Shown: piece after piece, positions 2 through 24,006 of the stretch
Layout of the letters: the number at the start of each line of letters is the position of its first letter
Position numbering within the stretch: position 1 is the first letter of the stretch
DNA from: Granulicella sp.
GTDB lineage: Bacteria > Acidobacteriota > Terriglobia > Terriglobales > Acidobacteriaceae
DNA length: 34,194 nucleotides
Assembly: GCA_027339965.1 (NCBI GenBank)
Contig: DAHWNL010000025.1
Location: 1-34,194 of the forward strand
Direction of reading: 5' to 3'
Program-made: the position numbers and the translations under genes
Notes under the pieces: generated by a model
What the model was told of the DNA's origin: nothing
The model's input: only the letters and a program-made list of their open reading frames with translations
Database searches by the model: none

Positions 2-2302
2 GATCTTTACGCAGTGAACAGAAACAACAAGCTGACTGTTACGGCTCAGTTCGGAAAACAGACACCGACTGGCACCATCTTCAACGGTGGAACCATGCTG
101 CCGCTTCCTTACGCGAGCACCAGATTCTCGCCCTCGGATACCCATCTAGCGCAAGCTCAAGATACGCAGATCATAACCCCAAATCTGGTGAATGTCGTTG
201 GCTATCAATATGAACGTTATGGCAACGGACTCGACAACTACACCACTTCGGGTGACTGGGCCACGAAGGCTGGTCTTACAGGACTTCCTACCGACGGAAT
301 TGCAGCCGACGATTTTCCTCCTGTCGCCTTTAGCGGAGCTAATTCGCCGACGAGCTGGGCACTCTATGGTTTTTCAGCCCAACAGGATAACGTGGTCGCA
401 TCCAATGAATTCCAGGACAACGTCCAATGGGTCCATCGTAACTCCAATTTCACCTTCGGCGGGTTTGTCCAGTTTGCCAAGAACGACACGACAACTCCCA
501 CCCAGCTCACCGCATTCAATTTCAGTGCCTTGCAGACAACAGGCTACTCCCCAACAGGTGTGCCGTTGGCAGCTGAAGGTAACAGCTACGCAAGCTATCT
601 GCTTGGTGAAGTCGACTCTGGAAGTTTGGCTGACACCACCGTTCCTGAAGTCGAAGGGCGTTACGCAGCTTACGCGCTCTACGCTCAGGATAACTGGAAG
701 CTGACCAATGAGCTTACAGTGAATCTGGGCTTGCGGTACATCATCGACACGCCTTTCGTAGAAGCACACAACAAGCTGTCCTTCATGAACGCGAGCCTCC
801 CAAATGCGGAGGTGGACAACTTCCCAGGCATCCTGCAATTTGCGGGTAGCGGCGCAGATAGTTGCAATTGCAGGACTCCGGTGCAGACCAAGTTCAATAC
901 CTTTGAGCCACGAGTTGGATTTGCGTACAGCCCCAAGCTAGGCACTGTTCTTCGCGGATCCTATAGCATCGTAAGCTTCCGGTCTGCGGGTCTTGGTGGT
1001 ACCACTCCAGACTTTGGACAGTTGGGATACACCGCTAACCCGTCTTTTGTTCCTCCCAACAACAATGGTGTGGAGGCCTTCAACTGGAACAACGGCATAC
1101 CAGCGTATACGCATGCTCCGTTCCTTGAGCCAACTCTCAACACAGGTTTCAATACCACCACGGGTCCAACAGGCGGCGGCATTGTCTACCCAGATCCAGG
1201 CCACGCTGGATATCCTTCCTATACGGAATACTGGAATCTGACTGTGCAGCAGCAGATTACACCAAGCACCGCCCTTTCTTTGAGTTATGCGGGCAGCAAG
1301 ACGAGTCGTCTGGCTCTGAGCGGTGGATACCAGGCATTTTCAAACCAGCTCAATCCAAAGTATCTCGCCTTGGGTGAACTATTGAACCTGCCCGCCACTC
1401 CGTCGAATATTGCAGCGGCGCAGGCAATTATGCCAGGAGTTGGCCCTCAATATGCCAACTTTGATGGATCGATTGCGCAGATGCTGAGGCCATTTCCGCA
1501 GTATGCGGGCATCGATGATCGGGTCGCCGATTATGCCACCGGACAATATAACTCGATGCAGGTGCTCGCTGAGCATTTGATGGGCCATCACGTCTTCTTC
1601 CTGGTTGACTATACCTGGAGCCGAGAGATTGATGATAACGGTGGTGAGAGTTCACGCGGTGGAACCGATCGCACCGCGTGGGACATACGGCTGGATCGAT
1701 CCATCGCGAACCTCCCGACCCAGGTCTTCAGTGGCTCTGCCAGCTATCAGCTTCCGATCGGGCAAGGGCAGGCGCTATCCTTCCACAGTCACCTTCTCAA
1801 CAATCTCGCCGGCAATTGGACCTTGTCGGCCATCGTGGGCTACAACAACGGTTCCTACCTTGGCCCATTCGGCTCTGTATGCGTCCTGCCGGATGCTGGC
1901 AGCTGCTACGCGGATTACAATCCGTCGTTCACGGGACCAGCTCGCATCAATGGACCTTATGGCAAGGATGCGTCGACAGGCGGACCCAAGGTAAATCCAG
2001 TACCGTATATCAACATAAACGCCTTCCAGAACGCAGCGCCCTTCACCTACGGTACAACGCCAAGGGATGGAGCTTACGGAATCCGTTCCGATGGCGGCAA
2101 GAATGAAGAGGTGGCGATGGATAAGACGTTTACCCTTGTCAACCGCATATCGCTCGACCTGAGAGCCGATGCATTCAACCTCTTCAACCGTACGATCTGG
2201 TCCGCACCAGTCACAAATATCAACAGTCCCGCTTTTGGTCACATCACCGGACAAGCCAATGCGCCTCGTCAACTGCAGTTTGAGGCGTATATCAGATTCT
2301 AA
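2..2302 (+). CDS. TonB-dependent outer-membrane receptor (Oar-like, Acidobacteria type), 5'-truncated by the window edge
   Basis: Frame is open from base 2, so the GTG at 14 is not the true start. Typical barrel motifs: YALYAQDNWKLTNELTVNLGLRY, FEPRVGFAY, WNLTVQQQI, LRADAFNLFN. Ends PRQLQFEAYIRF with a C-terminal Phe. Confidence 0.93.
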   Translation, partial: DLYAVNRNNKLTVTAQFGKQTPTGTIFNGGTMLPLPYASTRFSPSDTHLAQAQDTQIITPNLVNVVGYQYERYGNGLDNYTTSGDWATKAGLTGLPTDGIAADDFPPVAFSGANSPTSWALYGFSAQQDNVVASNEFQDNVQWVHRNSNFTFGGFVQFAKNDTTTPTQLTAFNFSALQTTGYSPTGVPLAAEGNSYASYLLGEVDSGSLADTTVPEVEGRYAAYALYAQDNWKLTNELTVNLGLRYIIDTPFVEAHNKLSFMNASLPNAEVDNFPGILQFAGSGADSCNCRTPVQTKFNTFEPRVGFAYSPKLGTVLRGSYSIVSFRSAGLGGTTPDFGQLGYTANPSFVPPNNNGVEAFNWNNGIPAYTHAPFLEPTLNTGFNTTTGPTGGGIVYPDPGHAGYPSYTEYWNLTVQQQITPSTALSLSYAGSKTSRLALSGGYQAFSNQLNPKYLALGELLNLPATPSNIAAAQAIMPGVGPQYANFDGSIAQMLRPFPQYAGIDDRVADYATGQYNSMQVLAEHLMGHHVFFLVDYTWSREIDDNGGESSRGGTDRTAWDIRLDRSIANLPTQVFSGSASYQLPIGQGQALSFHSHLLNNLAGNWTLSAIVGYNNGSYLGPFGSVCVLPDAGSCYADYNPSFTGPARINGPYGKDASTGGPKVNPVPYININAFQNAAPFTYGTTPRDGAYGIRSDGGKNEEVAMDKTFTLVNRISLDLRADAFNLFNRTIWSAPVTNINSPAFGHITGQANAPRQLQFEAYIRF

Positions 2303-2361: not shown

Positions 2362-2936
2362 AGCTGCCAGACCACCCTCGGCCGCTCCTCAGCCATCGCT
2401 CAGCAGCTTGCCCTCAACCGCTCGCGTCTCCGGGAAGGAAGCCAGCGTAGCGAAGGGGAATGGGAGGTTTTCTTATTTCAGTCTCGATCACCCTTTAAAC
2501 GTCGAGGTTCTTGTTCCAGCAAGGCGAACCGATCGAATCCTTACGGTGGCGATCCTGCCATTGCTGCTGCATGATTCCTAGAGAGCGGTTGCCTGTCGGT
2601 CTTGTCCCCGGCGTGTTGACTCTGCCGTGCGGCATAGCCCGCAAGGAGAACATTTCATCAGCGCCAGGATCTCTGGACTGGGTGAAGAAGCAGGCGACAG
2701 GTTTCTTGACTGGAGCACCATAGGTGCAAGGAGCAAGCGCATTAAGACGAGGTTTACGAACGAAGGAGAAGGTTCGTATGGCTTATTGATTCTGCGTCGC
2801 GGCAGCCTGGAGGTCTGGGTAGAATTCAGTGGCAGGCTACGTCAAGCAGGTTTACTCCGGCTTTGCCGTGATGTCCGGATGGTTGGCCAGCCAGATGTGC
2901 TCGCATCCGGCTAGATCAAGGGAGCAAAAACAGGCA

Positions 2937-4463
2937 ATGAAGAGACGCACCGTATTGAAGGGGATTGGAGGCGCAATCGCGGCTGCTACCGTCCAGCCAA
3001 AGCGCTCGCTGGCTGAGCTGGCGTCCAGTCCACCGAACGTAGTCTTTGTGATTGCGGATCAATGGCGAGCCCAAGCATTGGGTTGCATGGGCAACGCCGA
3101 CATACGAACACCGAACCTCGACAAGCTGGCCTCTGAGGGTGTTCTGATGCGCCACACCTTTGCGAACACCCCGGTGTGTTGCCCGGCAAGGTCGTGCATG
3201 CTTACAGGTAATTATGTGAGCAAAACGGGCATGGTGGCCAACGATCTTCGGCTGCGGGAGTCAGAGATCACCTTGGGAGACCTGTTTTCTAAGGCGGGCT
3301 ACAGCACCGGTTATATCGGCAAGTGGCATCTGGACGGAGGGCCTCGTCTTCCCGGGTTCGTCCCTCCGGGCCGGCGGAGGCATGGCTTCCAGCACTGGGC
3401 AGCCAATGAGTGCAATCATAACTATTTTTACAACTGGTACTTCCGAGACGACAATGTTCCGATCGTCAAGGAAGAGTATGAGCCTGAGATGTGGACGCGT
3501 CTGGCCATCGAATTTCTCTATGAATCGCAAGACAAGCCTTTCTTCCTTACCGTGTCCTATGCTGCTCCGCACGATCCGTACGTAGCGCCAGAAAAGTACA
3601 TGAAAATGTACGATGCTGAGAAGTTGAAGATGCGGGAAAACTGGGTAGAGGATGTCCCGCATGGAGAGCGCAAGGACATTGCAGGCTATTATGCCGGCTG
3701 TACTGCTATCGATGACCAGTTGGGTCTTCTGTTCCGTGCAATCGAGGAGCTTGGGTTGAAGGACAATACCATTGTGATGTTCACATCCGACCACGGAGAC
3801 ATGCTCGGTTCCCAGGGGATGATTCTCAAGCGCAAGCCGTGGGAGGAATCGATTCGCGTCCCAGGTATCATTCGCTACCCCAGGCGTATTCCTGCCGGGC
3901 GTGAGTCGGATGCTTTGTTCTCGCAGGTGGATTACGCGGCCACTCTGCTTGGGCTGTGTGGCCTGCCGGTTCCTGGCAGCATGCAGGGCACAGACCAGTC
4001 CGAGGTGCTGACGGGGGCAAAATCGAGTGGGCCGGAGGCCGTGCATTTCCAAATATTTGGGCCTTACGAACACTCCAAACTCAAGGCGGGGTGGCGCGGA
4101 ATCCGTACAGAGCAATATATGTATGCGCGATGGCAGAAGGGTGCGTGGCTGCTTTACGATCTAAAGCAAGATCCTTACGAGATGAGGAATCTGGTCTCCG
4201 ACCCGGCCTATTCCTCCGTGAAAGATGATCTTGATACGAGGCTGCAGAAGTGGATGCAGGAGATCGGCGATTCATGGGAGATGAACTGGACGTTTCCCAT
4301 CGAGGATGGCCCGGAGCTGTGGAGTTACAAGACGTTTTACACCGTGCCGGAATATCTGGAGTGGGCGAAGCGAAATCCCAACCTAGCGCCGGGTGTTGAA
4401 GACTGGCTCACCAAGCACCCTTCCGACCCTGAAGATTGGGTAGCAGTGCATGGTTCGAGCTAG
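2937..4463 (+). CDS. Tat-exported formylglycine-dependent (S1, Cys-type) sulfatase
   Basis: Start moved to ATG 2937, giving MKRRTVLKG (twin-arginine signal). Motifs PNVVFVIADQ, TPVCCPARSCMLTG (CxPxR), GYSTGYIGKWHL, PHDPY, FTSDHG, LYDLKQDPYEMRNL. Confidence 0.95.
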   Translation: MKRRTVLKGIGGAIAAATVQPKRSLAELASSPPNVVFVIADQWRAQALGCMGNADIRTPNLDKLASEGVLMRHTFANTPVCCPARSCMLTGNYVSKTGMVANDLRLRESEITLGDLFSKAGYSTGYIGKWHLDGGPRLPGFVPPGRRRHGFQHWAANECNHNYFYNWYFRDDNVPIVKEEYEPEMWTRLAIEFLYESQDKPFFLTVSYAAPHDPYVAPEKYMKMYDAEKLKMRENWVEDVPHGERKDIAGYYAGCTAIDDQLGLLFRAIEELGLKDNTIVMFTSDHGDMLGSQGMILKRKPWEESIRVPGIIRYPRRIPAGRESDALFSQVDYAATLLGLCGLPVPGSMQGTDQSEVLTGAKSSGPEAVHFQIFGPYEHSKLKAGWRGIRTEQYMYARWQKGAWLLYDLKQDPYEMRNLVSDPAYSSVKDDLDTRLQKWMQEIGDSWEMNWTFPIEDGPELWSYKTFYTVPEYLEWAKRNPNLAPGVEDWLTKHPSDPEDWVAVHGSS

Positions 4464-4751: not shown

Positions 4752-7700
4752 GTGAGCATGTTCAGTCGAACCCGCAGAGGCTTTCTGAAGCTGCTGGGCG
4801 CAAGTGCGGCTTTCAACGGAGCCGCGCCTTTGCCAGGCCGGCTGGCAAAGCTTCTGGCGCCAAAAGCGCCAGGGCAGGATACAGTCTCCAGAGTCCCGAC
4901 AGAGGAGGAGTTGCTGGAGGGTTGGATGGGTGCGAACAGAACGTACCGTCCGCACACTCGCTGGTGGTGGCCGGGGAATGCCGTTACCCGGGATGGCATC
5001 AGGTGGGAGTTGGATCAGATGCGCTCTCAGGGTATCGGAGGGGTGGAACTGATGACCCCGTGGCGGATGTATGAGTCGGGGAACATCGACTACCTCTCCC
5101 AAGGGCACCTGGAGATGATCCGGTTTGCCATCCGAGAAGCCGAACTCCGGGACATGGAGGTGTCAATCAGTTTCTGCCCCGGTTGGAAGTTTGGGGGCGA
5201 CTGGGTTCCTCCAACTCAGAGGAGCAAAGTATTGACCCATGGCTGGACGGATGTGACCGGGCCAGCCCTTTATGACGAGGCTCTGCCGGCCTTTGTTGCG
5301 CCCCCCAGTGGCAATGGTGAACTGAACCCGCAGTTTCTCTCTGATGCGCCAGATGAAAACCAGATTGTTGCCGTACTGGCCGGAGCCGTGGTTGACCGAA
5401 GGATCGACCCATTCTCGGTGATCGATCTAAGCTCCCATGTGACGGGGAACCACTTGCAGTGGTCGGTTCCGAGCGGCGACTGGAAGTTGATGGTGTTTCG
5501 CCTTAAATATACAGGAGAGTTATGCGCCACAACTCAGAACTGGCCGAAGCGCCAGTGGGTATTGGACCACTTTAGCCGAGCCGCAGTGAGCAATTACTGC
5601 AACTTTCTCGGTGGAACGTTCTTTGAGAGCTTTGGAGAGGACTTTGGGAAAACGGTAAACAGTCTATTCTCTGACAGCTTTGAAGTGATGGTCATCCCCG
5701 GAACCGTTCACTGGACGAACCATGCTCTGGCTGAATTTCAGCTCAGGAAAGGCTATGACCTGACGCGCTACCTGCCTGCGATATGGTGGGATATGGGCGA
5801 GATAACGCCGAAGATTCGATACGACGTCAACGACTTCCTTGGATGGATCGGCATGGAGGCCTTCTTCAAGCCTTTTATCGAATGGAGCAGATCGCATGAC
5901 GTCGATGCGAGAATTCAGCCTTATTACAGATTCACGGAGGAGCTGATAGAAGGGGCTGGATCGTCGCCGAGGCCCGAAATGGAGGTGACCACGCCCAGCT
6001 TTGATGTGGTGACAGACCCGAGGAAGGCCGTAGCGTCGGGAGCCCATTTCTACGGTCGGGAGATCATATCCGCCGAGGCCTATACCTTCCTCCATCCAGA
6101 AAGATACCGGACGACCCTTGAAGAGATGAAGATCGCATCCGATGCGTTTCTCCGAGACGGTGTTACCCAGTTTTATAACCATGGTTATATCTATTCTCCG
6201 GAGATGCATGTTGCGCCCTCTCGCGATATGCCGTGGGCAAATCGTATCAGCCACTGGAATCCATGGTGGAAGCATTACAACCAGTTGACCGCGTACTTGA
6301 CGCGATGCTGCTTTCTTCTGCGGCAGGGCCAGTTTGCGGGTGATGTCCTCGTGTATACGCCGCAAGCCAATGTATGGACGCAGCGTGTGCTTTTCAACAA
6401 CAGACGGCGCACGATGCCGTATGGAAATTTAGGGCAACTGCTGGTGGCCAATGGATACGATTTCGATCTTGTCAATGACGATCTTCTTCAGAATCACTCT
6501 CGCGTGCAGGACGGAGAGATTCGGATTCGAAATCTGAAGTATCGGCTGCTGATCCTTCCGAACACCAAAGCGGTGCCGTTGAAAACCATGCAGGCAATTG
6601 AGAGATTTGTCGAGGCCGGCGGTGTGGTGATGGCACTGGGCGAGAGACCATCCCAGTCTGTGGGGCTGGAAGACTATAAACGCCGCGATGCCGAGGTGCT
6701 CCGAATATCAGACAGGCTATTCAATAAGAAGAGCGGCGGAAACGATCCTTTGGGGAGTGGTAAGGCCTATTCTCTTCCGGGGTATCGGATTCCGGACTTT
6801 GAGACAGCGGAGGAAGCCTTCAATCCCACTGCCGCCGCGAAGGTACCGCAGTACAGCTCGAAGGACGTTGAGCAATGTCTGTTCGGAGCGACGCCCGCTC
6901 CTGCGATGGAGATGACCAGAGACGAAGAGGAGCTGATACAGGTGCTTTCTTCGCATCTCCTGCCAGATGTCAGCCTTGGCAAAGGGAAGACGAGCGCTGG
7001 GATCACGTTTCTCCATCGCAGGATCGGGCCAGACGATCTGTACTTCATCACCAATCTTTCTGCGCTGCCGGTCGCCACAGACATCTCATTCCGGATTCAG
7101 GGGAAGACGCCTCAGGCATGGGATCCGATGACGGGAGGCATCAACCCGGTTTACATTTATAAGACTGATTCAGTTACCACCACCATCCCTCTGAAGTTGA
7201 TGCCCTACGAGTCTCGCTTTTATCTCTTCAAGCCTGGTGAGCCTTCTCTCCGCCTGAGCGAATGCAACCTCGATGAGATACGAATCTTTACGAGGGATGA
7301 AGTGACAGGGCTTAGCTCTAAAGGCGGGGAAGAGCGTATCCAGGCGATCGATGGAACCTCCACAATCAGGGGTCACGTTATCGTCAAGCCGCCTCCTCCG
7401 CCTTTCACAATCGCGGGCAAGTGGAAGCTGACGCTGGAAGCCCATGACTTTGAGAAAGTCGTTGCAGAGACTCAGATCTTGAGATCGTGGACCGAGGTCG
7501 CTGCGTATGAAAGGTTCTCAGGAACGGGGAGATACAACATCAGTTTTGTGCTCCCAGATGCTTTCGCTGAAGAAGATATGGATCTGACCTTGGATCTTGG
7601 CGTGGTGGGTGATATCGCCGAGGTGTTTGTCAATGGAAAGCCTGGAGGCATTGCGTGGAGGAGGCCATATCATTTGAACGTTACAGCGCTCGTTCAGCAG

Positions 7701-7943
7701 GGAACAAATCTCCTCGATGTTCATGTGACGAATACGCTCATCAACGTTGTTTCAAAGATGCAGAAGCCACCCGGTGTGCCGGCGGAGTTAGTTCCACATT
7801 ACGGCAACACCGCAGACATTTATCACGAAGGGTTTGGGGTATGGTCACAGCGGGAAAAGGGTTTCACGCCATTGCCTCCTTCCGGGCTGCTGGGCCCCGT
7901 TAGGCTTCTGGGGAGGCGGATTGTGGAGGTGAAGCTATCCTAA
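4752..7943 (+). CDS. Tat-exported GH106-like glycoside hydrolase (alpha-L-rhamnosidase family) with C-terminal beta-sandwich domain
   Basis: TRRGFLK Tat motif. GH106-type motifs RPHTRWWWPGNAVTRDGIRWELDQM..GIGGVEL, FSDSFE, SAEAYT. C-terminal LDLGVVGDIAEVFVNG...VTNTLIN...PSGLLGPV. Start is GTG 4752 or ATG 4758. Substrate is not determinable from sequence. Confidence 0.85.
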   Translation: MSMFSRTRRGFLKLLGASAAFNGAAPLPGRLAKLLAPKAPGQDTVSRVPTEEELLEGWMGANRTYRPHTRWWWPGNAVTRDGIRWELDQMRSQGIGGVELMTPWRMYESGNIDYLSQGHLEMIRFAIREAELRDMEVSISFCPGWKFGGDWVPPTQRSKVLTHGWTDVTGPALYDEALPAFVAPPSGNGELNPQFLSDAPDENQIVAVLAGAVVDRRIDPFSVIDLSSHVTGNHLQWSVPSGDWKLMVFRLKYTGELCATTQNWPKRQWVLDHFSRAAVSNYCNFLGGTFFESFGEDFGKTVNSLFSDSFEVMVIPGTVHWTNHALAEFQLRKGYDLTRYLPAIWWDMGEITPKIRYDVNDFLGWIGMEAFFKPFIEWSRSHDVDARIQPYYRFTEELIEGAGSSPRPEMEVTTPSFDVVTDPRKAVASGAHFYGREIISAEAYTFLHPERYRTTLEEMKIASDAFLRDGVTQFYNHGYIYSPEMHVAPSRDMPWANRISHWNPWWKHYNQLTAYLTRCCFLLRQGQFAGDVLVYTPQANVWTQRVLFNNRRRTMPYGNLGQLLVANGYDFDLVNDDLLQNHSRVQDGEIRIRNLKYRLLILPNTKAVPLKTMQAIERFVEAGGVVMALGERPSQSVGLEDYKRRDAEVLRISDRLFNKKSGGNDPLGSGKAYSLPGYRIPDFETAEEAFNPTAAAKVPQYSSKDVEQCLFGATPAPAMEMTRDEEELIQVLSSHLLPDVSLGKGKTSAGITFLHRRIGPDDLYFITNLSALPVATDISFRIQGKTPQAWDPMTGGINPVYIYKTDSVTTTIPLKLMPYESRFYLFKPGEPSLRLSECNLDEIRIFTRDEVTGLSSKGGEERIQAIDGTSTIRGHVIVKPPPPPFTIAGKWKLTLEAHDFEKVVAETQILRSWTEVAAYERFSGTGRYNISFVLPDAFAEEDMDLTLDLGVVGDIAEVFVNGKPGGIAWRRPYHLNVTALVQQGTNLLDVHVTNTLINVVSKMQKPPGVPAELVPHYGNTADIYHEGFGVWSQREKGFTPLPPSGLLGPVRLLGRRIVEVKLS

Positions 7944-8472: not shown

Positions 8473-9501
8473 ATGAAGGGTCAAGCATTGAAGAGATGGA
8501 TGAGAGGTATGCTCGCGGCGGGCATCTTGTGCGGCTTGCACCAGATGGTGGCCCATGCACAGCAGTCAATCTTCCCTCATCCTCCAGCAAACCGAAATGT
8601 GACTATCTCGAATGGAAGTCTGTCGATCACCTTCAACATAGCCTGGGGTGGTGTCGTGGTGGCGATCCGTAATGCGCAGGTTGCAAATGGCTTGAACATT
8701 GTGGATGTTCATGACGTAGGGCGTGAGTTCCAGGTGGATCAGTTCCTGCATCTGATGATGGACGGAAAGAGGAGCCTGATGATCAATCCCACGCAAGCGG
8801 GCGCGCTTGGAAGGCAGGCTTATTATATGCACCCCAGAGGCGTGGCGATACCTCAGGTCGGCAGTAAGGTGGAGAAGTGGACTGCCGGACCAAGTGAGTT
8901 TCATGCCACCATCGACCCGCTGGACTACGATACAGGGAATCCCACGAACTGGGTGTATGTTGAGGACGTAAAGATCGATTCTCAGGGAGTAGCGAGGTTC
9001 CATTTCACTTTCTACAATCATGAGAAGACGACCTATCTTCTAGAGTCCGAGGTGCCGACGTTATACTCCGATTCAACAGATGCGTTCCTCTTTCCGTTGA
9101 CGTCGCCCTACGAGCGCTCAAATGCCGCCGCTCAGCCTCTGAAGAGTCAAGAGTGGCCGGTCAAGATGGTCCACGGAGAGAAGTGGCCTCAGGGCCATCT
9201 GAAGTCGCTGGGCTGGATTGCCAACATTGATACAAAAGATGACTTCGGGATCTTTTACACAACGCCAGTGGGATATCCAGAGACATACGGAACTTTTCCC
9301 AATTCAACCTATCCTGGGCTGGGACCGCTTGGGAAGACAAACGTTTCAACTGGCAGGCTGACGTCTTATCCGGGAGAGATCTATTCAATCGATTACTCCG
9401 TTGTGGTGAGCTCCATCAAGAGCGGCCCCAGTTTGATTTCGAAGCAACCACCGGCCATTCTGAAAATTCTGAGAGACGTACCACCGGGCAGTACGAAGTG
9501 A
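8473..9501 (+). CDS. Secreted protein of unknown function (GRxFQxD / NPTQAG domain)
   Basis: 342-aa ORF with GAGGT RBS, a Sec signal peptide ending AHA-Q, and a beta-strand-rich mature part. Confidence 0.85.
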   Translation: MKGQALKRWMRGMLAAGILCGLHQMVAHAQQSIFPHPPANRNVTISNGSLSITFNIAWGGVVVAIRNAQVANGLNIVDVHDVGREFQVDQFLHLMMDGKRSLMINPTQAGALGRQAYYMHPRGVAIPQVGSKVEKWTAGPSEFHATIDPLDYDTGNPTNWVYVEDVKIDSQGVARFHFTFYNHEKTTYLLESEVPTLYSDSTDAFLFPLTSPYERSNAAAQPLKSQEWPVKMVHGEKWPQGHLKSLGWIANIDTKDDFGIFYTTPVGYPETYGTFPNSTYPGLGPLGKTNVSTGRLTSYPGEIYSIDYSVVVSSIKSGPSLISKQPPAILKILRDVPPGSTK

Positions 9502-9774
9502 GGAATATGCCGGCAAGGGATAAAGACGTCGGGTGTTGAATCGGAGGGTACCGCTTGAGCCGGCGCAGCCTTATCCTGAGTTCGATTTCGGTGCCCATGG
9601 ATTGTAAGGAGTTGACGCTTCGGGTTTAGAAAAGACCGCTGAGAGGATGAAGAGCGAGTTGGCGGCATCCGGCCTTGTCGCACCGATCCGACAGAAGTAG
9701 CTTTCGAAGAAAGGCTTACTCCAGGAGGCAATGCGGAAATGATGATGAAAGATGGGTTATCGACGGAAGGATCT

Positions 9775-12168
9775 ATGCATCGTGAGAGGAGGTGCTGTTT
9801 GCGGTCCTGCGTGGACGTAGCGCTTCCAGGTGTGATCATCCTGGCTTGTCTCAGTTTGACTGCCTGCAATGGCTCAAGCTACAGCAGCCAATCATCGCCT
9901 CCGACGTCGTCTCAAGCCACCCAGACAACGCTAACAGCCACACCGGCAAAGGCAGCGTATGGGGCTAGTGTTGCGCTGACGGCGACGGTAATGGATACGG
10001 GCAGTAGCCCGGCGTCTGCGGTGTCGTCCGGCTCAGTGACGTTTTACAACGGAAGCACGTCGCTGGGGACGGGGACATTGAGCAGTTCTGGATCGACGAC
10101 TTTGACTGTACAGACACTGCCGGCAGGGACGGACAGCCTCACGGCGGCTTTTGCGGCGGAGGGCAACTACGCGGCTTCAACCTCCGCTCCGGTAACCGAG
10201 ACGATCACGGGGGCATCTACGACAACAACGCTAACTGCATCACCGACCAGCGTGGCTCAGGGGGCCAGCGTGACCTTGACGGCGACGGTGACCAGCAGTG
10301 ACGGCACGCCCACGGGCACGGTGACCTTCTCTGATGCAAGCGGATCAGTGGGTACGGCGACACTCAATGCCGGCGGCATGGCGACCCTTGTTCTGGCAAC
10401 ACTGCCGGCGGGAACCGACAGCCTGACGGCTACCTTTGCCGCGCAGGGCAACTATGCAGCTTCTACCTCGGCGGTGGTTACGGTGTCGGTGACGGCTGGA
10501 AACGCAGTAAGTGCGCCTGTGATCTCGCCGACCGGCTCGACGATCTCCGGGACAACCCCCGTGTATATTACTGATTCTGCAACCGGCACAACCGTCTACT
10601 ATACTCTAGACGGATCCAATCCTTCGGCTACAAATGGCGCCAGTTGCGAGCCGAGTTCTACGACGCCATGCTTCAGTCTTCTGGGTGCAGCTACGGTGAA
10701 GGCGGTGGCTATCAGTTCGAGTGGCAGCGCCTCCAGTGTTGTCTCTCAGGCCTATACAGCTCCTTCGAGCAGCAATGAGTGTACTGGCTGGAACCCACAA
10801 AACATATTCGAGACCAGTGACTTCACGGCCGATCAGGCGACGATTACCAGCAACGGAGCCACGTTAGGTGTGGACTGCAACGGTGGCGGCTACGTGAATT
10901 ATTTGAATACGGGATACGGAAGTTTCGGGAATACCATCGCTGTGGCCTACGGGCGCGGGTTCCAGGCAGATATCCGCGATTCTTTGCACAGTGGACTTTA
11001 TAATCCAACAGAAGCCGGTATAAACGACGGAGATGGAACGCCTGTAACACTGGCGCTTACCAACTCGTCTGAGGGCGCCGGCGGCCGAATTAACATTGTG
11101 CCATATAATATGGGTCTCTTCCTGAATCCTGGCTTCTGCTTTTTCCCACTGAGTTATTATTATCCAACAGATAACAATGCTTTAGCGAGCTGTACGAGCG
11201 ACTCGAACACAGATGGCATCTGGACTCAGGAGCTGGCAGCGAAAATCTCTCCCACGCAGCAGTTATCGAGCGAATTTCAAATGCAAGGTTACTACCAGGA
11301 TGCAGGAGAACTTGGCAATAACGCCGCCTCCATCTTTGAATACAACTGGACGATGACCTACGCTGAAGACCCTGGAGCGCCAGGCGACCCCGGTGGTCTC
11401 CTATGGGAATCGCCCCAGAATAGCTCTGATTACAGCCCCATCTACAAGTTCGGTCCGTCGGCAACTTATATTGACAATGGCTCATCGACAGGTGTGCTGG
11501 ATACCTCTTATGAAGGCAGTACTTATGACGTTAAAGCCTATAGTGACGTTACCAACACGAGCTCGTTGACGTCTGTGACTCCCACAAATACAGATCTTGT
11601 CATTGCGCAGGTAGATACGGGCCTGAGAGTTCGATTGGATGCAAACTATACGGATTCTATGGCGCTGAATGCAAGCTGCACCGGCTGGACGGCTCCTCAG
11701 TCTGTGAATCTGCAATCGAGCACCACGACCTACTCCATGATATACCCCGTGCCGGCTACTTCTCCCTGTGAGTCGGTTCTCGCGCTGGAGGATCCGAGCG
11801 ATTCAAATGCTCCGATTGTTGCCATGTACTTCCCGCAGACTGATCCGGTGAATGTGCAGCAGGTGACTGAAACGAACGTAGATAGCGGCGCGAGCATCAG
11901 CCTGGACCGGAGGTACCATTCTTATATCGGATGGAATACAAACATCAATGCGAACAATCCGAATATCGTGACGAATGGAATTACCTATGTCAATCAATTC
12001 ACACAGTTAATACCGCTGTTACGCGTAACCGGTCTATTGGCGCCGAACCATGCCGGCGCAAATATCGATGAGAGCCTTCATATGGATATTTATGTTCTCA
12101 TTGGATCGCCCACGCAAGTTCTCACGGCCCTGCAGAACATGAATAAGAATCAGGGCTGGAACTGGTGA
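9775..12168 (+). CDS. Lipoprotein: two bacterial Ig-like (Big_3-type) domains, one CHB_HEX_C/Fn3-associated domain and a ~460-aa C-terminal domain of unknown function
   Basis: Lipobox LSLTA-C followed by a Ser/Pro linker. Two TTTLTA.P....GASV.LTATV...G.VTF...L.AGTDSLTA.F...GNY..STS repeats. APVISP...VYYTLDGSNP domain. Start uncertain: ATG 9775 gives a 30-aa signal, ATG 9739 is the alternative. Confidence 0.85.
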   Translation: MHRERRCCLRSCVDVALPGVIILACLSLTACNGSSYSSQSSPPTSSQATQTTLTATPAKAAYGASVALTATVMDTGSSPASAVSSGSVTFYNGSTSLGTGTLSSSGSTTLTVQTLPAGTDSLTAAFAAEGNYAASTSAPVTETITGASTTTTLTASPTSVAQGASVTLTATVTSSDGTPTGTVTFSDASGSVGTATLNAGGMATLVLATLPAGTDSLTATFAAQGNYAASTSAVVTVSVTAGNAVSAPVISPTGSTISGTTPVYITDSATGTTVYYTLDGSNPSATNGASCEPSSTTPCFSLLGAATVKAVAISSSGSASSVVSQAYTAPSSSNECTGWNPQNIFETSDFTADQATITSNGATLGVDCNGGGYVNYLNTGYGSFGNTIAVAYGRGFQADIRDSLHSGLYNPTEAGINDGDGTPVTLALTNSSEGAGGRINIVPYNMGLFLNPGFCFFPLSYYYPTDNNALASCTSDSNTDGIWTQELAAKISPTQQLSSEFQMQGYYQDAGELGNNAASIFEYNWTMTYAEDPGAPGDPGGLLWESPQNSSDYSPIYKFGPSATYIDNGSSTGVLDTSYEGSTYDVKAYSDVTNTSSLTSVTPTNTDLVIAQVDTGLRVRLDANYTDSMALNASCTGWTAPQSVNLQSSTTTYSMIYPVPATSPCESVLALEDPSDSNAPIVAMYFPQTDPVNVQQVTETNVDSGASISLDRRYHSYIGWNTNINANNPNIVTNGITYVNQFTQLIPLLRVTGLLAPNHAGANIDESLHMDIYVLIGSPTQVLTALQNMNKNQGWNW
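9925..10494 (+). repeat. Intragenic tandem duplication encoding the two Ig-like domains (~300-bp unit)
   Basis: ACAACGCTAAC at 9925 and 10225. ACACTGCCGGC..GACAGCCT.ACGGC....TTTGC.GCG.AGGGCAACTA.GC.GCTTC.ACCTC occurs in both copies. Confidence 0.8.
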
Positions 12169-12223: not shown

Positions 12224-15200
12224 TCACATGTTGCGCCTGTATTGGCCGCCAACGGCATAAAGCGCATCGGTGATCTGCCCCAGCGAGCAGACTCGCACCG
12301 CGTCCATGAGGACGCAGAAGGTGTTCTCTCCAGCGATCACGGTCTGTTGCAGCCGGGTGAGCATGGCCGGCGATTGAGAGGTGTGGCGGGCTTGAAAAGC
12401 GGCCAATCGTCTTAACTGCGATTGCTTCTCGTGCTCGGTGGAGCGAGCAGGATTCATGCCGGGCTGGGGTCGGGATGTCTCGCCCAGAAAGGTGTTCACG
12501 CCGATGATGGGCAGCGTGCCGTCATGCTTCTTCTGCTCGTACAGCATCGACTCGTCCTGGATCCTGCTCCGCTGGTATCCGGTTTCCATGGCGCCCAGAA
12601 CTCCGCCGCGCTCGGAGAGGCGATCGAACTCATCCAAGACCGCTGCCTCCACGAGGTTGGTCAGTTCTTCCAGGATGAAGCTTCCCTGGTTGGGATTCTC
12701 GTTTTTCGCCAGACCCCATTCGCGATTGATGATGAGCTGAATGGCCAGCGCGTGGCGGACGGATTCAGCGGTGGGCGTGGTGATCGCTTCGTCGTAGGCG
12801 TTGGTGTGCAGCGAGTTGCAGTTGTCGTAGACGGCGATGAGCGCCTCCAGGGTGGTGCGAATGTCGTTGAAGCTGATCTCCTGCGCGTGTAGGGAGCGGC
12901 CAGAGGTTTGCACGTGGTACTTCAGCTTCTGAGCGCGCTCGCCGGCGCCGTACCGCTGCCGCATGGCCAGCGCCCAGATGCGCCGAGCCACCCGGCCCAG
13001 CACGGTGTACTCGGGATCCATTCCGCTGGAAAAGAAGAAGGAGAAGTTGGGCGCAAAGTCATCAACCTGCATGCCCCGGGCCAGATACGCTTCGACATAG
13101 GTAAAGCCGTTGGCTAGAGTGAAGGCCAACTGAGTGATGGGATTGGCCCCGGCTTCCGCAATGTGATAGCCAGAGATGGATACCGAGTAGAAGTTGCGCA
13201 CCCGGTGCTGGATAAAGTACTCCTGGACGTCGCCCATCAGCTTCAAGGCGAACTCCGTGGAGAAGATACACGTGTTCTGGCCTTGATCTTCCTTGAGGAT
13301 GTCAGCCTGCACGGTGCCGCGCAGACGTTGCAGGACACTTGCGCGAATCTCTTCCATCTCGGCAGGGGTGAGAGCACGCCCTACCTGATCGCGTCGCGCT
13401 TCCAGCTGCTGATCGATAGCCGTATTTAAAAACATGGCAAGAATCGCCGGCGCCGGTCCGTTGATCGTCATGGAGACGGAAGTGGTGGGATCGCAGAGGT
13501 CAAAGCCATCGTAGAGGGCCTTCATGTCATCCAGCGTGGCCACGGAAACGCCGGCGTTGCCGATTTTGCCGTAGATGTCCGGACGTAGGTCAGGGTCAGC
13601 GCCATAGAGGGTGACGGAGTCGAAGGCGGTGGAGAGCCGTTTGGCCGTCATCCCCTCGGACAAGAGTTTGAAGCGGCGGTTGGTCCGGAAGGGATCGCCT
13701 TCTCCGGCGAACATGCGGGTGGGATCCTCGTCGGCACGTTTGAACGGGAAGACGCCGGCGGTGAACGGAAACGATCCGGGCAGGTTTTCCAGCATCCTCC
13801 AGCGAAGGATCTCGCCATGGTCCTCGAAGTGCGGCAGCGCGACCCGAGGAATGCGGGTTCCGGACGGCGTGGTCAACGGCTGGAGAGATTCCGAATCTTC
13901 GTTTGAAGGAGTCCGCTGTGGCGGCCATTCTGCAAGCAGCTTTCGCGCTTCAGGAGCAAGTCCGGCGTCGTGTTCGCCAATCAGGCGGTCCAAGGCGTGC
14001 TGAGCAGCAACGCAACCCGGGTCGCGATCGCTTCCCGGGCGCGCAGCCAACATGCGCTTGGATTCCTGCAACTGCTGGCGTTCCCGCGCCAGTCGCACCT
14101 GCTCCTGGGTGAACGCATGGTAGCCGCGAACGGCGGCGGAGATCTCAGCCAGGTAACGTTCTCGTCCAGCCGGGAGCAGGGAGTCTCTTTTGGTGGAGAG
14201 CTTTCCCGCAACGGGCGTGAGTCTTCCCGGCCGCAGCTTCAGGCCGAGTGCCGCGAGCCTGGGCAGCAATCCGTGATAGAGCGCCGTCACTCCGTCGTCG
14301 TTGAAGCGTGCGGCCTGGGTGCCATATACGGGCATATCTTCCGGCGCCAGATTCCAATGTTCCCGATTGCGCTGCACCTGTTTGGCCACGGCCCGCAGAG
14401 CGTCCTGTGCGCCCCGGCGATCGAACTTGTTGATGGCAACAAAGTCGGCGTAGTCCAACATGCCGATCTTCTCCAACTGGGAGAGTGCTCCAAACTCCGG
14501 CGTCATGACATAGAGACTCAGATCGACCAGGGGCACGATATCCGCATCACCTTGTCCGATGCCTGCGGTCTCCACCAGGATCAAGTCAAAGCCGGCCACC
14601 TTACAGGCGGCGATGATATCGGGCAGATCGGAGGCGAGCCCGGAGGTGGAGGGTGCACCTGAACGAGCAGCGCGAGAGGCCAGGGATCGCATAAAGATGC
14701 TGCGTCTGCCTTGCCATGGGGCGATGGCATTCATGCGGATGCGATCGCCGAGGAGCGCGCCTCCTGTCTTGCGGCGCGTGGGATCCATCGCGATGACGGC
14801 GATCTGCAAGGCGTCGCTCTGGTCAAATCGGAGACGCCGGATCAGCTCGTCGGTGAGCGACGACTTCCCCGAGCCGCCGGTTCCGGTGATGCCGAGGACA
14901 GGCACAGTCGCTTTTCGGGCAGCCTGAGCGAGCGCGGTTCTTGCCGCAGGGCCGATCTGGCCTTCTTCCAGGGCGGTGATGCACTTGGCCAGATTGCGGC
15001 GGTCGCTCAGGATCTCCCTTGCGGTCTGAGATTCCATCAAGGCGGACCAATCCGCGGCAGTGTCCGCAGCCAGGTCAGTGGCGCAGAGAGCCAGCATCGC
15101 GCGGATCATTCCGGCTAGGCCCATCCTCTGGCCATCGTCCGGGCTGAAGATGCGAGTCACGCCGTAGGCATGCAACTGCTCGATTTCGGCTGGAAGAATG

Positions 15201-15559
15201 ACTCCTCCTCCGCCTCCGAAGACTCGAATCGAGGCTCCGTCGCGCTCGCGGAGCAGGTCCATCATGTATTGGAAGAACTCCATGTGCCCGCCCTGGTAGC
15301 TGGAGACGGCAATCGCCTGGGCGTCTTCTTCCAGAGCGGCGGTCACCACCTCATCGACGGAGCGGTTGTGCCCCAGGTGAATCACCTCAGCGCCCTGCGC
15401 CACCAGGATGCGACGCATGATGTTGATGGCGGCATCGTGACCGTCGAAGACAGCAGCTGCGGTCACGACGCGAATCTTGCGGAGAGAGGCTTGGGCGGCC
15501 TGCGCAGGTTCCAGGCTCTGGCCGGAGAGCCACGTGATCGGCATGGGTGCGCTTTGCAT
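12224..15559 (-). CDS. icmF: Fused isobutyryl-CoA mutase / MeaI GTPase (AdoCbl-dependent)
   Basis: N-terminal B12-binding domain (FDGHDAAINIMRR, SSYQGGH), P-loop GTGGSGKS with ETAGIGQ and NKFD, and mutase barrel (PTRMFAGEG, RLSTAFDSVTLYG, TVQADILKE, SISGYHIAEAG). Ends GGQYRRNM. Confidence 0.96.
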   Translation of the reverse strand: MQSAPMPITWLSGQSLEPAQAAQASLRKIRVVTAAAVFDGHDAAINIMRRILVAQGAEVIHLGHNRSVDEVVTAALEEDAQAIAVSSYQGGHMEFFQYMMDLLRERDGASIRVFGGGGGVILPAEIEQLHAYGVTRIFSPDDGQRMGLAGMIRAMLALCATDLAADTAADWSALMESQTAREILSDRRNLAKCITALEEGQIGPAARTALAQAARKATVPVLGITGTGGSGKSSLTDELIRRLRFDQSDALQIAVIAMDPTRRKTGGALLGDRIRMNAIAPWQGRRSIFMRSLASRAARSGAPSTSGLASDLPDIIAACKVAGFDLILVETAGIGQGDADIVPLVDLSLYVMTPEFGALSQLEKIGMLDYADFVAINKFDRRGAQDALRAVAKQVQRNREHWNLAPEDMPVYGTQAARFNDDGVTALYHGLLPRLAALGLKLRPGRLTPVAGKLSTKRDSLLPAGRERYLAEISAAVRGYHAFTQEQVRLARERQQLQESKRMLAARPGSDRDPGCVAAQHALDRLIGEHDAGLAPEARKLLAEWPPQRTPSNEDSESLQPLTTPSGTRIPRVALPHFEDHGEILRWRMLENLPGSFPFTAGVFPFKRADEDPTRMFAGEGDPFRTNRRFKLLSEGMTAKRLSTAFDSVTLYGADPDLRPDIYGKIGNAGVSVATLDDMKALYDGFDLCDPTTSVSMTINGPAPAILAMFLNTAIDQQLEARRDQVGRALTPAEMEEIRASVLQRLRGTVQADILKEDQGQNTCIFSTEFALKLMGDVQEYFIQHRVRNFYSVSISGYHIAEAGANPITQLAFTLANGFTYVEAYLARGMQVDDFAPNFSFFFSSGMDPEYTVLGRVARRIWALAMRQRYGAGERAQKLKYHVQTSGRSLHAQEISFNDIRTTLEALIAVYDNCNSLHTNAYDEAITTPTAESVRHALAIQLIINREWGLAKNENPNQGSFILEELTNLVEAAVLDEFDRLSERGGVLGAMETGYQRSRIQDESMLYEQKKHDGTLPIIGVNTFLGETSRPQPGMNPARSTEHEKQSQLRRLAAFQARHTSQSPAMLTRLQQTVIAGENTFCVLMDAVRVCSLGQITDALYAVGGQYRRNM

Positions 15560-16014: not shown

Positions 16015-16920
16015 TCAAGAATGGTTGTTGCTGGCGCGAATCCAGCTTGCCAGGAGAGAGGCGGCTGTGCGGAGGTTATCGAGGTCCAGGGGGTAGGTCG
16101 CTACAGCTCGTGCGGCGCTCAAGAGAGCGGCTCCGGTTTTCCCCTGCGCCTTGAGGGCATCGGCGCGCTGCTTATAGATGCGAGCGTACGCCACCTGACG
16201 AGGAATGAGGCCACAGCCCGGGGCGCCATAGTGTTTGCGGACAAATCGCTTTTGCGCATCCATCATCCGCTGCGTATCTCTGGACATGGAGCCTGCAGAC
16301 CAGCGATAGTACGCAATCACCTGGGGGATAAATGCCACCTCATGGCTTAGAGCGATCCGCAGCCAAAGATCGCGATCCTCGGTAGCGCGCATGCTCTCAT
16401 CAAAGGCGCCAATCTCCTCAGTGCATCGCCGGCGGAAGGTGATGGTGGGGCAGGGAAGATCCACCTTCCGCATATAAATCTGCGCCGCAATCCGCCCCTC
16501 AGCATGATGGCGATTGCCTAGAAATGTGCTTTGTGGAATGCCATCGGCATCGATGTGGGTGACCAGGCCATAGGCGAGGCCGGCATCGGGCCGTTCCCGG
16601 AGGATACGCACTGACTCGGAAAGTCTGCACGGAAGCCATACGTCGTCCGCGTCCAGGAGGGCCAAAAATTCCGAGTCTGAGGCCCGGATGGCGGCGTTTC
16701 TTGCCGCCGGGAGCCCTCGGTTGTCTTGACGGATGTAGCGAAGCTTTGTCCCAAGCCGATCCATGAATGGGGCGACAATCTCCGAGGTGTTATCGGTACT
16801 TCCGTCGTCCACCAGCACAATTCGCCAATCGGAGAACGATTGCGAGGCCACGCTTTCCAAGGCGGCCGGAAGATAGCGGGCCGCATTGAACGCCGGAATG
16901 ATCACATCCACAGTAGCCAT
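16015..16920 (-). CDS. Glycosyltransferase family 2 (GT-A fold)
   Basis: VDVIIPAFN, VDDGSTD, NRGLPAARN, LLDADD (DxD), EDRDLWLR. Confidence 0.95.
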   Translation of the reverse strand: MATVDVIIPAFNAARYLPAALESVASQSFSDWRIVLVDDGSTDNTSEIVAPFMDRLGTKLRYIRQDNRGLPAARNAAIRASDSEFLALLDADDVWLPCRLSESVRILRERPDAGLAYGLVTHIDADGIPQSTFLGNRHHAEGRIAAQIYMRKVDLPCPTITFRRRCTEEIGAFDESMRATEDRDLWLRIALSHEVAFIPQVIAYYRWSAGSMSRDTQRMMDAQKRFVRKHYGAPGCGLIPRQVAYARIYKQRADALKAQGKTGAALLSAARAVATYPLDLDNLRTAASLLASWIRASNNHS

Positions 16921-17041: not shown

Positions 17042-18817
17042 TTATTCAAAGAACGTGACGGTTCGCCCGAGGGACTGGAGGTGCTCATAGTCGTAGTTCG
17101 AGGTTTCGGAAGCCTCGCTGAGGTAACGAGCCTTGAGGGACAGAGCATGGGGCAGACTGATCTCAGTATACGGCTGAATGTCCTCCAGCCGATGCAGGAT
17201 GTCATTGCGTATCCAGAAGAAGTTATCGTGATAGATCGCTGGGCTGTAACGATCGACAAACTGCGGAATCCGGTAGATGTTTCCAGCGCGGGACCATGGA
17301 ATATGGGTTTCAATCACGTCTGGATTTTCCGTGGTCAGGACGCGTGTCAAGGCCGCATATCCATCGTGGGCCAAGACGGTATTGGTCAGTAGTCCGGCAT
17401 CCACGATACGAATGTCCTCGCAGCACAGAGAGGCTCCGCCAACATCTGGAACCATGAAAGAGATCGTTGGCATATCCAGTTGTTTGCGAATATCATCCAC
17501 GGCTCGTCCCGTCATCGCGAACTGATGAGGGGTGATTCCGTACATGTTTGGTCCGTAGGGAACGCGATATCGGAGCAGCAACCTCTCTACGAAGCCGGAT
17601 GGAGGAGCGGTGGTTCCCAGACCGTCGGAACGAAGGGCGAGGGCCCAGGCCTCGTGAAAGTCGAGATATCGATAGTGGATAGTAAATGTTGAAGCCCACC
17701 ATAGGATGAGGACCACGGCGGTCCATGCCGCCGGCAATCTGCGTCGGTAGGACAGGAACAGATAAAAGACGAGAAGAATGGCCGGAATGAAGCAGGAAAA
17801 GTACATGCGGCCGCGGTATCCGGAGTTGGCGCCAATGATGAAATTAAAGAAGGTAACGCCAACGGTATAGCCGACGCAAAAGCGCAGGGAGTCATTGGAA
17901 AGCCAGGAGGGCGGCTCGCCTGTCTCTTTGTCATCCGGGCGGAAATTCGCGACATCTTGCGTAAAGTAGAGCCACAGAACGCCTGCGATCAGCACGGCGA
18001 GGCAATCGTAGAGACCAAGCAGGCCGGCCAGATGGCTCCAGACGGCCGCCATGCCGTGGCGGGTGTAGGGAGCCCAGCGCTTGGCGAAGATCGTATTGGG
18101 CATAAAGGCATGAAAGGCGACGAGCCGCCATAGCTCAACTCCAAGCCAGGCCAGGACAGTGGAGGTTGCAACTTGAACTCCGATTCGCTTGGAGCGGGGA
18201 TTCGCAGAGAGAAAGATGGCGACTCCCGCGCACCAGAGATAAAAAGCCGCCTCGAAGCGTACTGTGGTTGCGAGAAGGGTTGTCAGGATCAGAAGGGAGG
18301 AGTTCCGGCGCTGCAAGGCTACGATGCAGAGGGCAACGAGCAGACTGAGCAGGCTCATCTCCATGCCATTGGCGTCCTCGTAGAGAAACATGCTGCTAAG
18401 CCCAAGCGCAAGGCCGGCAAGAAGGGCGAGCGGAGCGCCGATCCGCCTGTAGAGCAAAAGATAGAAGACACCGCAGGACAGAGCGGAACAGACAGAGGCC
18501 AGCACCTGGCTGACTTGCAGCATGCCAAGGAATCCAGGGAGGGCTAGCTTGTAACACGCCGCCAAAAGCCAGAACCAAGCCGGCGATGAAAATCCCTCCA
18601 CCTGTTCAGAGACGGGTGTCAGAGCCGTTCGCCCGGTCTCAGCATAGGTGCGCGCATAGGCCACGGTGATACTGCCATCGTCCCAGCCGAAGTCGCGAAC
18701 AAAGTGAACCTGCAGGAGATTGACGGCGAGGATGGTGAGAACCAGCGCAGAGAGCAAAAGGATGTGTTTGCGCTGGATGGATAGGCACTTGGAATCAGGT
18801 GGCGACGCGTCAGACAC
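17042..18817 (-). CDS. Polytopic membrane protein, putative GT-C glycosyltransferase (AftB/ArnT-like)
   Basis: After the first TM helix: WDDGSITVAYARTYAETG...EQVEGFSSPAWFWLLA. Also NGME, RFEA, PNTIFAK, roughly 10 or more hydrophobic segments and a soluble C-terminal domain (VDAGLLT..LA, NPDVI). GTG start is uncertain. Confidence 0.7.
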   Translation of the reverse strand: MSDASPPDSKCLSIQRKHILLLSALVLTILAVNLLQVHFVRDFGWDDGSITVAYARTYAETGRTALTPVSEQVEGFSSPAWFWLLAACYKLALPGFLGMLQVSQVLASVCSALSCGVFYLLLYRRIGAPLALLAGLALGLSSMFLYEDANGMEMSLLSLLVALCIVALQRRNSSLLILTTLLATTVRFEAAFYLWCAGVAIFLSANPRSKRIGVQVATSTVLAWLGVELWRLVAFHAFMPNTIFAKRWAPYTRHGMAAVWSHLAGLLGLYDCLAVLIAGVLWLYFTQDVANFRPDDKETGEPPSWLSNDSLRFCVGYTVGVTFFNFIIGANSGYRGRMYFSCFIPAILLVFYLFLSYRRRLPAAWTAVVLILWWASTFTIHYRYLDFHEAWALALRSDGLGTTAPPSGFVERLLLRYRVPYGPNMYGITPHQFAMTGRAVDDIRKQLDMPTISFMVPDVGGASLCCEDIRIVDAGLLTNTVLAHDGYAALTRVLTTENPDVIETHIPWSRAGNIYRIPQFVDRYSPAIYHDNFFWIRNDILHRLEDIQPYTEISLPHALSLKARYLSEASETSNYDYEHLQSLGRTVTFFE

Positions 18818-20853: not shown

Positions 20854-20991
20854 GTCTCGATGGTGAATGATGATTGAAGATTGGCCGAAGTGAGGAGGGG
20901 AATCGGCTTTGCCGCAGGGTGCGCGAGGGAACCAAGACATGAAGGGGGGAGAGCGGCCGAACGGCTTCTCCTGCTTGGTCTGTACCCGGGT

Positions 20992-21000
20992 TGGTACACT
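20992..21000 (+). promoter_or_regulatory. Candidate extended -10 promoter for dxs
   Basis: TG-G-TACACT about 70 nt upstream of the dxs ATG in the divergent intergenic region. Confidence 0.35.
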
Positions 21001-21071
21001 GGGGGGATGGGTTATCCGTCTCAACACAGAAGAGTTCTACCGCAGTTGTTTCGGAGGCACAGGTCCCCAGC

Positions 21072-22943: not shown

Positions 22944-23115
22944 GGACGAAAGTTCCGTGGATGGCCGGGCCGCGCCCAAGGCCGCGCCGAAACAGGATGT
23001 AGCTTGCAGCCTCTCCCGTAGTTCTCGAGATCAAGGAGATCCCGAGGTGGGAGGTGAGCCCTTGGGTTCCGCGTGTTTGACAAAGCCAAAAAGCGGCCTT
23101 CCACTGGCGCTAGGG

Positions 23116-23959: not shown

Positions 23960-24006
23960 ACACAATATGTTGTGGTGGAGTAGCAGAAAATCGCTACAGG
24001 ATGGAT
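23960..24006. promoter_or_regulatory. NrdR-box-like palindrome with a degenerate second copy at 31-bp spacing
   Basis: ACACAATATGTTGTGG (23960-23975) matches the NrdR consensus acaCwAtATaTwGtgt at 14 of 16 positions. TCGCTACAGGATGGAT (23991-24006) is a weak match. Confidence 0.5.

Follow-up and report, generated by a model that had tools for sequence, protein, structure and literature searches.

The described proteins closest in predicted fold to one of the genes analysed here are the GH174 endo-alpha-1,3-L-fucanases Fun174A (8jd7) and Fun174Sb (9k1g, which holds fucotetraose), stand-alone beta-sandwich domains whose substrate is a sulfated 6-deoxy-L-sugar polymer. More distant likenesses are to the PBCV-1 finger protein P19 (8h2i), to the exo-rhamnogalacturonan lyase of PL26 (5xq3) and PL4 (1nkg), which act on rhamnose-containing glycans, and to the domains of the same overall fold in galactose mutarotase/aldose 1-epimerase (PF01263), GH38, GH36, GH2 and YidC. 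Mutarotases act on monosaccharides, the accessory supersandwich domains of GH38, GH36, GH2 and YidC are not catalytic, and the supersandwich domain of PL4 has a lyase mechanism with His, Lys or Tyr in the groove. Here we compare with these systems two adjacent genes, A and B, on a stretch of 34,194 nucleotides from Granulicella sp. (Acidobacteriota; assembly GCA_027339965.1, contig DAHWNL010000025.1, positions 1 to 34,194; the window hereafter). An earlier note had proposed, from the DNA letters, that both exported products carry one unnamed domain, a candidate new carbohydrate-active family in soluble and surface-tethered forms. The features of the two genes are as follows.

8473..9501, + strand: gene A, 342 amino acids; signal-peptide-like residues 1-29, then one unnamed, predicted beta-supersandwich domain
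8602..8802, + strand: shared motif segment of gene A, with D81 at 8713, R84 at 8722, Q87 at 8731 and N105 at 8785
9049..9066, + strand: ExPxxY motif of gene A with E193, the second superfamily-conserved acid, which covaries with K288 (9334)
9739..12168, + strand: gene B, 809 amino acids; LTAC, two Big_3_5, Fn3_assoc, unnamed C-terminal domain
10780..12165, + strand: C-terminal domain of gene B, 462 amino acids, with its motif segment at 10840-11019; probable remote member of the superfamily, carrying insertions

Our comparisons place A firmly in an unnamed superfamily and B very probably in the same one, as a remote member. We favour, with a probability of about 0.5, the reading that A is an exported glycan-cleaving enzyme of a locus that also encodes a TonB-dependent receptor, a sulfatase and a GH106 protein, and that B is its surface-anchored cousin with a different site.

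Compared directly, A and B showed no significant likeness, either in BLASTP (23.1 bits, E 0.025) or in an hhalign comparison of family A with family B (probability 0.45%, E 0.13), so the profile comparison that the earlier note had suggested as a check came out negative. The likeness exceeds chance because intermediates of a wider superfamily link both. A profile of 29 superfamily sequences, including no member of family A or family B, matched A with 76.9 bits over profile positions 24-247, most of the domain. The same profile scored 3.1-14.4 bits on 11 B-family proteins, in the very segment that the earlier note had singled out; ten of the 11 scores beat the highest of 2004 decoys made by shuffling or reversal (5.1 bits), and a weak second match was usually added at the C-terminal strand and helix. 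Newly found B proteins reached 19-22 bits against the superfamily profile. Profile-profile comparison of the superfamily with family B by hhalign in local mode gave 81% (E 1.2e-5) and, in a second comparison, 78% (E 1.9e-5), with a score of 48 against a best null of 34 from 60 shuffled or reversed alignments; a forced global alignment gave 96%, a figure that has no null for that mode. The suggestion that A and B are old homologues is thereby supported, through the superfamily intermediates, and a recent duplication was rejected.

Both translated segments quoted earlier (8602-8802 and 10840-11019) proved exact, and the motifs SNG, GGxV, GxxI, GRxFQxD and NPT[Q/E]AG follow one another in that order in both open reading frames (ORFs). 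A pattern built post hoc from A and B matched only these two among the 34,776 ORFs of the genome. As the letters of a shared site, the motifs held in part: GG, GRxxQ and NPT[QE]xG form the conserved core, and the other letters are not all conserved within the families. The last Asp of GRxFQxD (D89 in A), put forward as a conserved residue, is present in 91 of 121 A proteins, and 10 of 12 B rows have S in its place.

The route to the wider superfamily was a search of 1.84 billion representatives with the A profile, which yielded 28 matches, four of them remote. The superfamily was seen in Acidobacteriota, Planctomycetota, Proteobacteria and viral contigs; it occurred in 20 of 301 Planctomycetota genomes and, domain-wide, in 4 of 301 from the phylum of the host, 12 of 16 genomes from one search having been dropped as matching only an immunoglobulin (Ig) domain of the alignment. 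Two contigs from a viral collection (L149 and L150) encode superfamily members, one of which is 52% identical to a planctomycete member. A superfamily member found no match among plasmids, and in five planctomycete genomes the superfamily profile, used for GH174-like proteins, recovered known members only. Across a 34-row alignment (A7), mean column identity is 16% and the signature reads DxGRxxQ ... NPxQxG ... ExPxxY; D81 is kept in 31 rows, R84 in 32, Q87 in 33, N105 in 31, Q108 in 30 and E193 in 28, and G83, P106 and G110 persist as well. The domain in this alignment matched nothing in Pfam or NCBIfam.

Within family A (n=121), E164, N105 and Q108 are invariant, and H120 (117), D81 (109), E193 (102) and K288 (98) are widely kept. 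H120 belongs to an insertion that only family A has, and the superfamily at large does not conserve K288; by alignment, the conserved acids of A are D81 and E193. All 14 A proteins with I193 carry Q288, and these probably form one lineage. B keeps GRxxQ and NPT; its global alignment to the superfamily shows no ExPxxY, and its invariant charged or polar residues include Y404, H417, D430, D521, D619, R630, R725 and E778. A chemistry common to A and B appears doubtful, because B has Ala at the D81 position and invariant residues of its own.

AlphaFold models A as a single domain (predicted local distance difference test, pLDDT, 86; predicted template modelling score, pTM, 0.82) and the B domain with moderate confidence (pLDDT 70, pTM 0.80). 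Against 48,161 representatives, A matched two GH174 structures at Z 22.9 and 22.2, followed by the next at 17.1; in a second comparison the two GH174 structures scored 23.2 and 23.1 and the next protein 17.6. The best structural match covers the whole domain (Z 23.2, root-mean-square deviation 3.2, 264 residues aligned), and Foldseek likewise ranks GH174 first (E 2.2e-9). Further matches, at Z 12-17, are the PBCV-1 finger protein, PL26, GH38, GH2, YidC and mutarotase supersandwich domains. B would belong to the same fold class, with GH174 not clearly ahead, 8jd7 being its first Foldseek match (E 5.4e-5). AlphaFold and the fold comparisons thus put both models in one fold class. The supersandwich resembling galactose mutarotase that had been read from the opening strands is also what A is predicted to form, and the closest characterised fold is the GH174 endo-fucanase (Z 23) rather than a mutarotase (14.8).

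By sequence, neither A nor B is a GH174 protein, and CAZy families are sequence-defined. The original paper on the GH174 structure reportedly proposed D119 and H154 as catalytic. The literature describes GH174 as dominated by beta-sheets (PMC12534559) and its fold as carrying endo-1,3-fucanase activity, with D119, E120 and E218 of Fun174A given as key residues in a review table (PMC11943901). The aligned ranges (30-334 of A on 62-382) put D119 and E120 near A residues 71-88 (D78-D81-E85), a hint that comes from end-point arithmetic rather than from aligned residues. A shares with the GH174 enzymes the stand-alone domain and, in its loci, sulfatases and glycosidases for 6-deoxy-L-sugars. It differs from them in its 8-10% identity without a profile match, in an activity that for A is only inferred, in neighbours that are rhamnosidases and not fucosidases, and in its hosts, which are Acidobacteria, Phycisphaerae and Acidithiobacillus.

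P19 resembles A as a stand-alone beta-sandwich with a C-terminal helix (Z 16.8-17.6) and differs as a virion protein of an algal virus whose activity is only proposed and which has no sequence match to A. That the 8h2i chain is P19 we infer from its 292-residue length and a range ending at 339. A passage on P19 reports ligand-like, unexplained density in its trench (PMC9617893). Chlorovirus entries lead a viral fold search with A, whose strong matches among viral models (BFVD M1H8F2, A7RAY6, A7K9Q9 and M1HE97) include one named chlorovirus. PL26 and PL4 have the fold of A (Z 17 and 13.6) and are multi-domain enzymes of 7-9% identity to A, which is a single domain and has no Pfam or PDB sequence match to them.

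That the domain belongs to no named family stands: neither the A nor the B domain matched Pfam, NCBIfam or PDB sequences, and phmmer of A and B against all PDB sequences returned nothing meaningful at E up to 10. In an Atlas search, all 30 matches of A were unnamed clusters (0.96-0.97) and B found nothing above 0.79. A literature search, in which searching by sequence was not possible and few subscription journals were covered, found no description of A, B or the superfamily. Family A comprises 124 relatives among 1035 candidates, of which 120 were listed at 45-89% identity. Where the carrier has a name, it belongs to Acidobacteria, Phycisphaerae, Acidithiobacillus or one of a few other groups, and the close titled relatives are Acidobacteria. 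DUF642 is present on 14 of the 120 listed proteins, and a PEP-CTERM-like tail on 17 of 28 long forms. Family B is smaller, with 27 matches among 8000 scored candidates, three of them from this locus itself; seven are short stand-alone proteins of ~35% identity, and three more remote relatives come from metagenomes. Among 250 genomes from the family of the host, four contained B; among 401 Planctomycetota genomes, none did. Of five B-carrying genomes tested, two also have A, the other three being 70-81% complete.

A tree puts the B of this locus among the lipoprotein forms, whose branch is long and has full support; the soluble forms fall outside that branch, and their own grouping is less well supported. 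The proposal of soluble and tethered forms of one domain did not survive: A and B belong to two distinct families, and both soluble and tethered members occur in each. The idea of one enzyme in two forms was rejected, the domains being of ~300 and ~460 residues and B lacking the superfamily Asp. At one further locus a B-type domain follows a BD-FAE esterase in a single fused protein, whose gene lies downstream of a GH78-like gene (L003:1571-3778).

The remaining genes of the cluster lie upstream of A, apart from one gene that faces B.

14..2302, + strand: TonB-dependent receptor of acidobacterial type, 5'-truncated (PF25183, E 1.3e-111, profile positions 171-838)
2829..4463, + strand: sulfatase (PF00884, E 2e-61)
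4752..7943, + strand: GH106 alpha-L-rhamnosidase family protein (PF17132, E 2e-81)
12224-15559, - strand: fused protein of B12-binding, MeaB GTPase and methylmalonyl-CoA mutase domains (Pfam), convergent with B and closing the cluster

Receptor, sulfatase, GH106, A and B are co-oriented on the + strand, an arrangement for which a polysaccharide utilisation locus is the most economical reading; the window starts at base 1 of the contig, and the 5' part of the receptor is lost at the contig end. The sulfatase has a weak twin-arginine translocation (Tat) signal match (formate_TAT, E 0.19, residues 30-55), the GH106 protein has a twin-arginine N-terminus (RRGFLK) and scores under the cut-off of model NF049897, and scans for promoters and terminators across the locus gave signal at or under chance level. 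Read by eye, the signal-peptide-like start of A ends in AHA, and B has a lipobox-like LTAC with C43 at 9865; Pfam places PF16640 (Big_3_5, Ig) on two stretches of B and PF13287 (Fn3_assoc) on one more. Compared with its near relative L005, A shows 52 synonymous and 36 non-synonymous codon changes, and the B domain 72 and 26.

Gene neighbourhoods were compared across 40 A loci, left from 46 after removal of five duplicates and one 267-base fragment (median flank 8.4 of 12 kb), by scanning selected ORFs within 6 kb (86 of 88 and 96, most of which came from a list of 130). Nineteen of the 40 had at least one such neighbour, be it a glycosidase, a lyase-like gene or a sulfatase; seven had an alpha-L-rhamnosidase (six under a stricter test, which misses a contig-end fragment) and four a sulfatase. 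All seven acidobacterial A loci had such a carbohydrate neighbour, GH106 in five. Of random 13-kb segments of the genome that holds the present locus, 1.6% contained a rhamnosidase, 5.4% a sulfatase and 16.9% at least one family of the exemplar set. The last figure understates the density of all glycosidases, as the exemplars were drawn from A loci, and the related genomes compared are not independent. The predicted enrichment in carbohydrate loci therefore applies to family A and fails for the wider superfamily, for which, together with B, 88 of 166 ORFs were scanned with Pfam. The glycosidases beside A vary by lineage (GH106, GH78, GH3, GH92, GH116, GH127, GH27 and GH5), which suggests that family A serves more than one substrate.

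For B, 7 of 13 loci other than this one and L005 have a glycosidase, lyase-like or sulfatase neighbour; an alginate lyase adjoins one, and GH29 lies near one only. Locus L007 holds a receptor, a soluble B, GH106, A and a sulfatase, its receptor and GH106 being 57-60% identical to those of the present locus, and L121 holds a receptor, a sulfatase and a soluble B. The exact A-B adjacency of this locus was seen again only in the near-identical L005, and the lipoprotein clade of B is usually located away from such loci.

At locus L022 (L022:8749-15592) two A genes stand in tandem, with one clear and one probable remote superfamily gene nearby; around them lie genes for two enzymes of the enolase superfamily, for a short-chain dehydrogenase, for IclR and LysR regulators and for a pair of TonB-dependent receptors, and a GH106 gene stands 6.2 kb away. 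We take this set to resemble a non-phosphorylative L-rhamnose pathway. Long ORFs without a Pfam match (E 0.001) adjoin A in five further carbohydrate loci (L011:6860-9952, L024:10930-13287, L017:3407-4795, L018:11168-12583 and L019:1512-2906).

Taken together, these data make it slightly better than even odds that A cleaves a glycan, by hydrolysis being likelier than by elimination. B, probably lipid-anchored at the cell surface on its Ig stalk, would cut or hold the polymer; the TonB-dependent receptor would bring in the fragments, from which the Tat-exported sulfatase and GH106 would take off sulfate and terminal rhamnose. A would cut the backbone in the concave face of its sandwich; D81 and E193 are the candidate acids for this, and R84, Q87, N105 and Q108 would grip the sugar. 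The substrate might be a rhamnose-containing, possibly sulfated polysaccharide, a guess made because rhamnosidase and sulfatase are the neighbours and GH174 acts on a sulfated 6-deoxy-L-sugar polymer; the chance that A's substrate contains rhamnose is about half that of glycan cleavage itself. A further-reaching version, which we consider unlikely, would make family A a new glycoside hydrolase family of endo-alpha-L-rhamnanases that attack sulfated rhamnans. A would be the founding enzyme of a large, unannotated superfamily, itself part of a structural clan that also takes in GH174 and the chlorovirus finger protein; family B would be a second new family of that clan, with a rebuilt active site, and would act first, at the cell surface. 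One review gives endo-rhamnosidases only in GH39 and GH90 and calls characterised rhamnosidases scarce (PMC13706346).

Several observations count against an enzymatic A with a cousin in B. The B protein of this very locus scores weakly against the profile free of A and B (7.4 bits, E 2.8 among the 34,776 genome ORFs); at the superfamily D81 position B has Ala in 17 of 22 proteins and never an acid, and E193 is replaced in 19 of 121 A proteins. By VIA, the best match of B is 9k1g at Z 17.1, with a galactosaminidase domain at 16.0 and 8jd7 in 17th place. Structure-based identity of A and B to GH174 is 7-11%, and profiles A1, A3, A6, A7, A8 and A9 retrieved no GH174 sequence at E up to 10 from all PDB sequences, a set that includes 8jd7 and 9k1g; the same fold is non-catalytic in GH38, GH36, GH2 and YidC (Z 13-16). 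Of the A loci, 21 of 40 lack a carbohydrate neighbour, and several of these stand among housekeeping genes. In the wider superfamily just 2 of 20 loci lie close to a glycosidase or sulfatase, and the background figure of 16.9% is too low for the reason given.

Some of these points suit a reading in which A and B are non-catalytic glycan-binding proteins that capture the polysaccharide or its fragments and feed the receptor; B would do so as a lipoprotein at the surface, A within the periplasm or the medium. B is, by its lipobox-like motif, a lipoprotein on an Ig stalk without the superfamily Asp, the soluble B clade stands directly behind receptor and sulfatase in L007 and L121, the invariant residues are mostly Arg, Gln, Asn and aromatic, many glycosidases carry the fold in non-catalytic form, and a subgroup of A has lost E193. 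On the other side, the best structural match of A, by more than five Z units, is an enzyme, two acids are kept across the superfamily, and A is often fused to the accessory beta-sandwich DUF642, as catalytic domains often are. We regard a binding role as a serious contender, if a minority one.

A could also be a polysaccharide lyase that uses His, Lys or Tyr in the same groove, which we hold to be improbable. The matches to PL26 (Z 17.1-17.3) and PL4, the conservation of H120 (117/121) and K288 (98/121) in A, and the alginate lyase beside one B locus are all compatible with it, and P19 has been proposed as a lyase in a passage of the finger-protein paper (PMC9617893). Against elimination, GH174 scores ~6 Z units higher, and of the two basic residues one lies in the A-only insertion and the other lacks superfamily-wide conservation.

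That the superfamily has a role unrelated to polysaccharide breakdown, the placement of A and B reflecting inherited gene order in a few related genomes, is likewise hard to credit. The sparse glycosidases and sulfatases in the wider-superfamily loci, the half of A loci without them, the usual location of the lipoprotein B clade elsewhere and the restriction of exact A-B adjacency to L005 would all fit; the neighbours of A, however, differ by lineage, a pattern that gene order passed down by descent leaves unexplained, and the fold is one that handles sugars.

Least probable by our estimate is an exported mutarotase or epimerase converting the beta-L-rhamnose released by inverting GH106 and GH78 enzymes (described as inverting in a passage of PMC13706346): aldose 1-epimerase structures reach Z 14-15 and L022 sets its pair of A genes beside a short-chain dehydrogenase and dehydratases of the enolase superfamily, but these structural scores lie under that of GH174, neither A nor B nor any of 34 superfamily members matches PF01263 (Aldose_epim), and surface-sorting tails and accessory domains fit polymer substrates better.

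Should A or B cleave a glycan, as the preferred enzymatic reading has it, each would be the first of a new family in CAZy, and its activity would offer a first handle on a superfamily without a Pfam or NCBIfam model; the finding of new candidate glycosidase families is in itself not unusual. The locus context supplies a short list of substrates, namely rhamnose-rich, possibly sulfated polysaccharides, and residues to mutate.

Beyond the cluster, the fused mutase protein at 12224-15559 we take to be IcmF-like. A 591-amino-acid ORF at 17042-18817 (- strand) has no Pfam match and adjoins a family-2 glycosyltransferase at 16015-16920, and 20991-33355 (+ strand) holds housekeeping genes: dxs, then mraZ, mraW, ftsL, a penicillin-binding protein, two Mur ligases and mraY. 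Elsewhere in the same genome, the 3' remnant of a second A gene (G000:C39:1680-1814, - strand; L052/L148) lies behind a GH127-like gene and another GH106 gene and is followed by a transposase-like insertion sequence; it is a second, decayed linkage of A with GH106.

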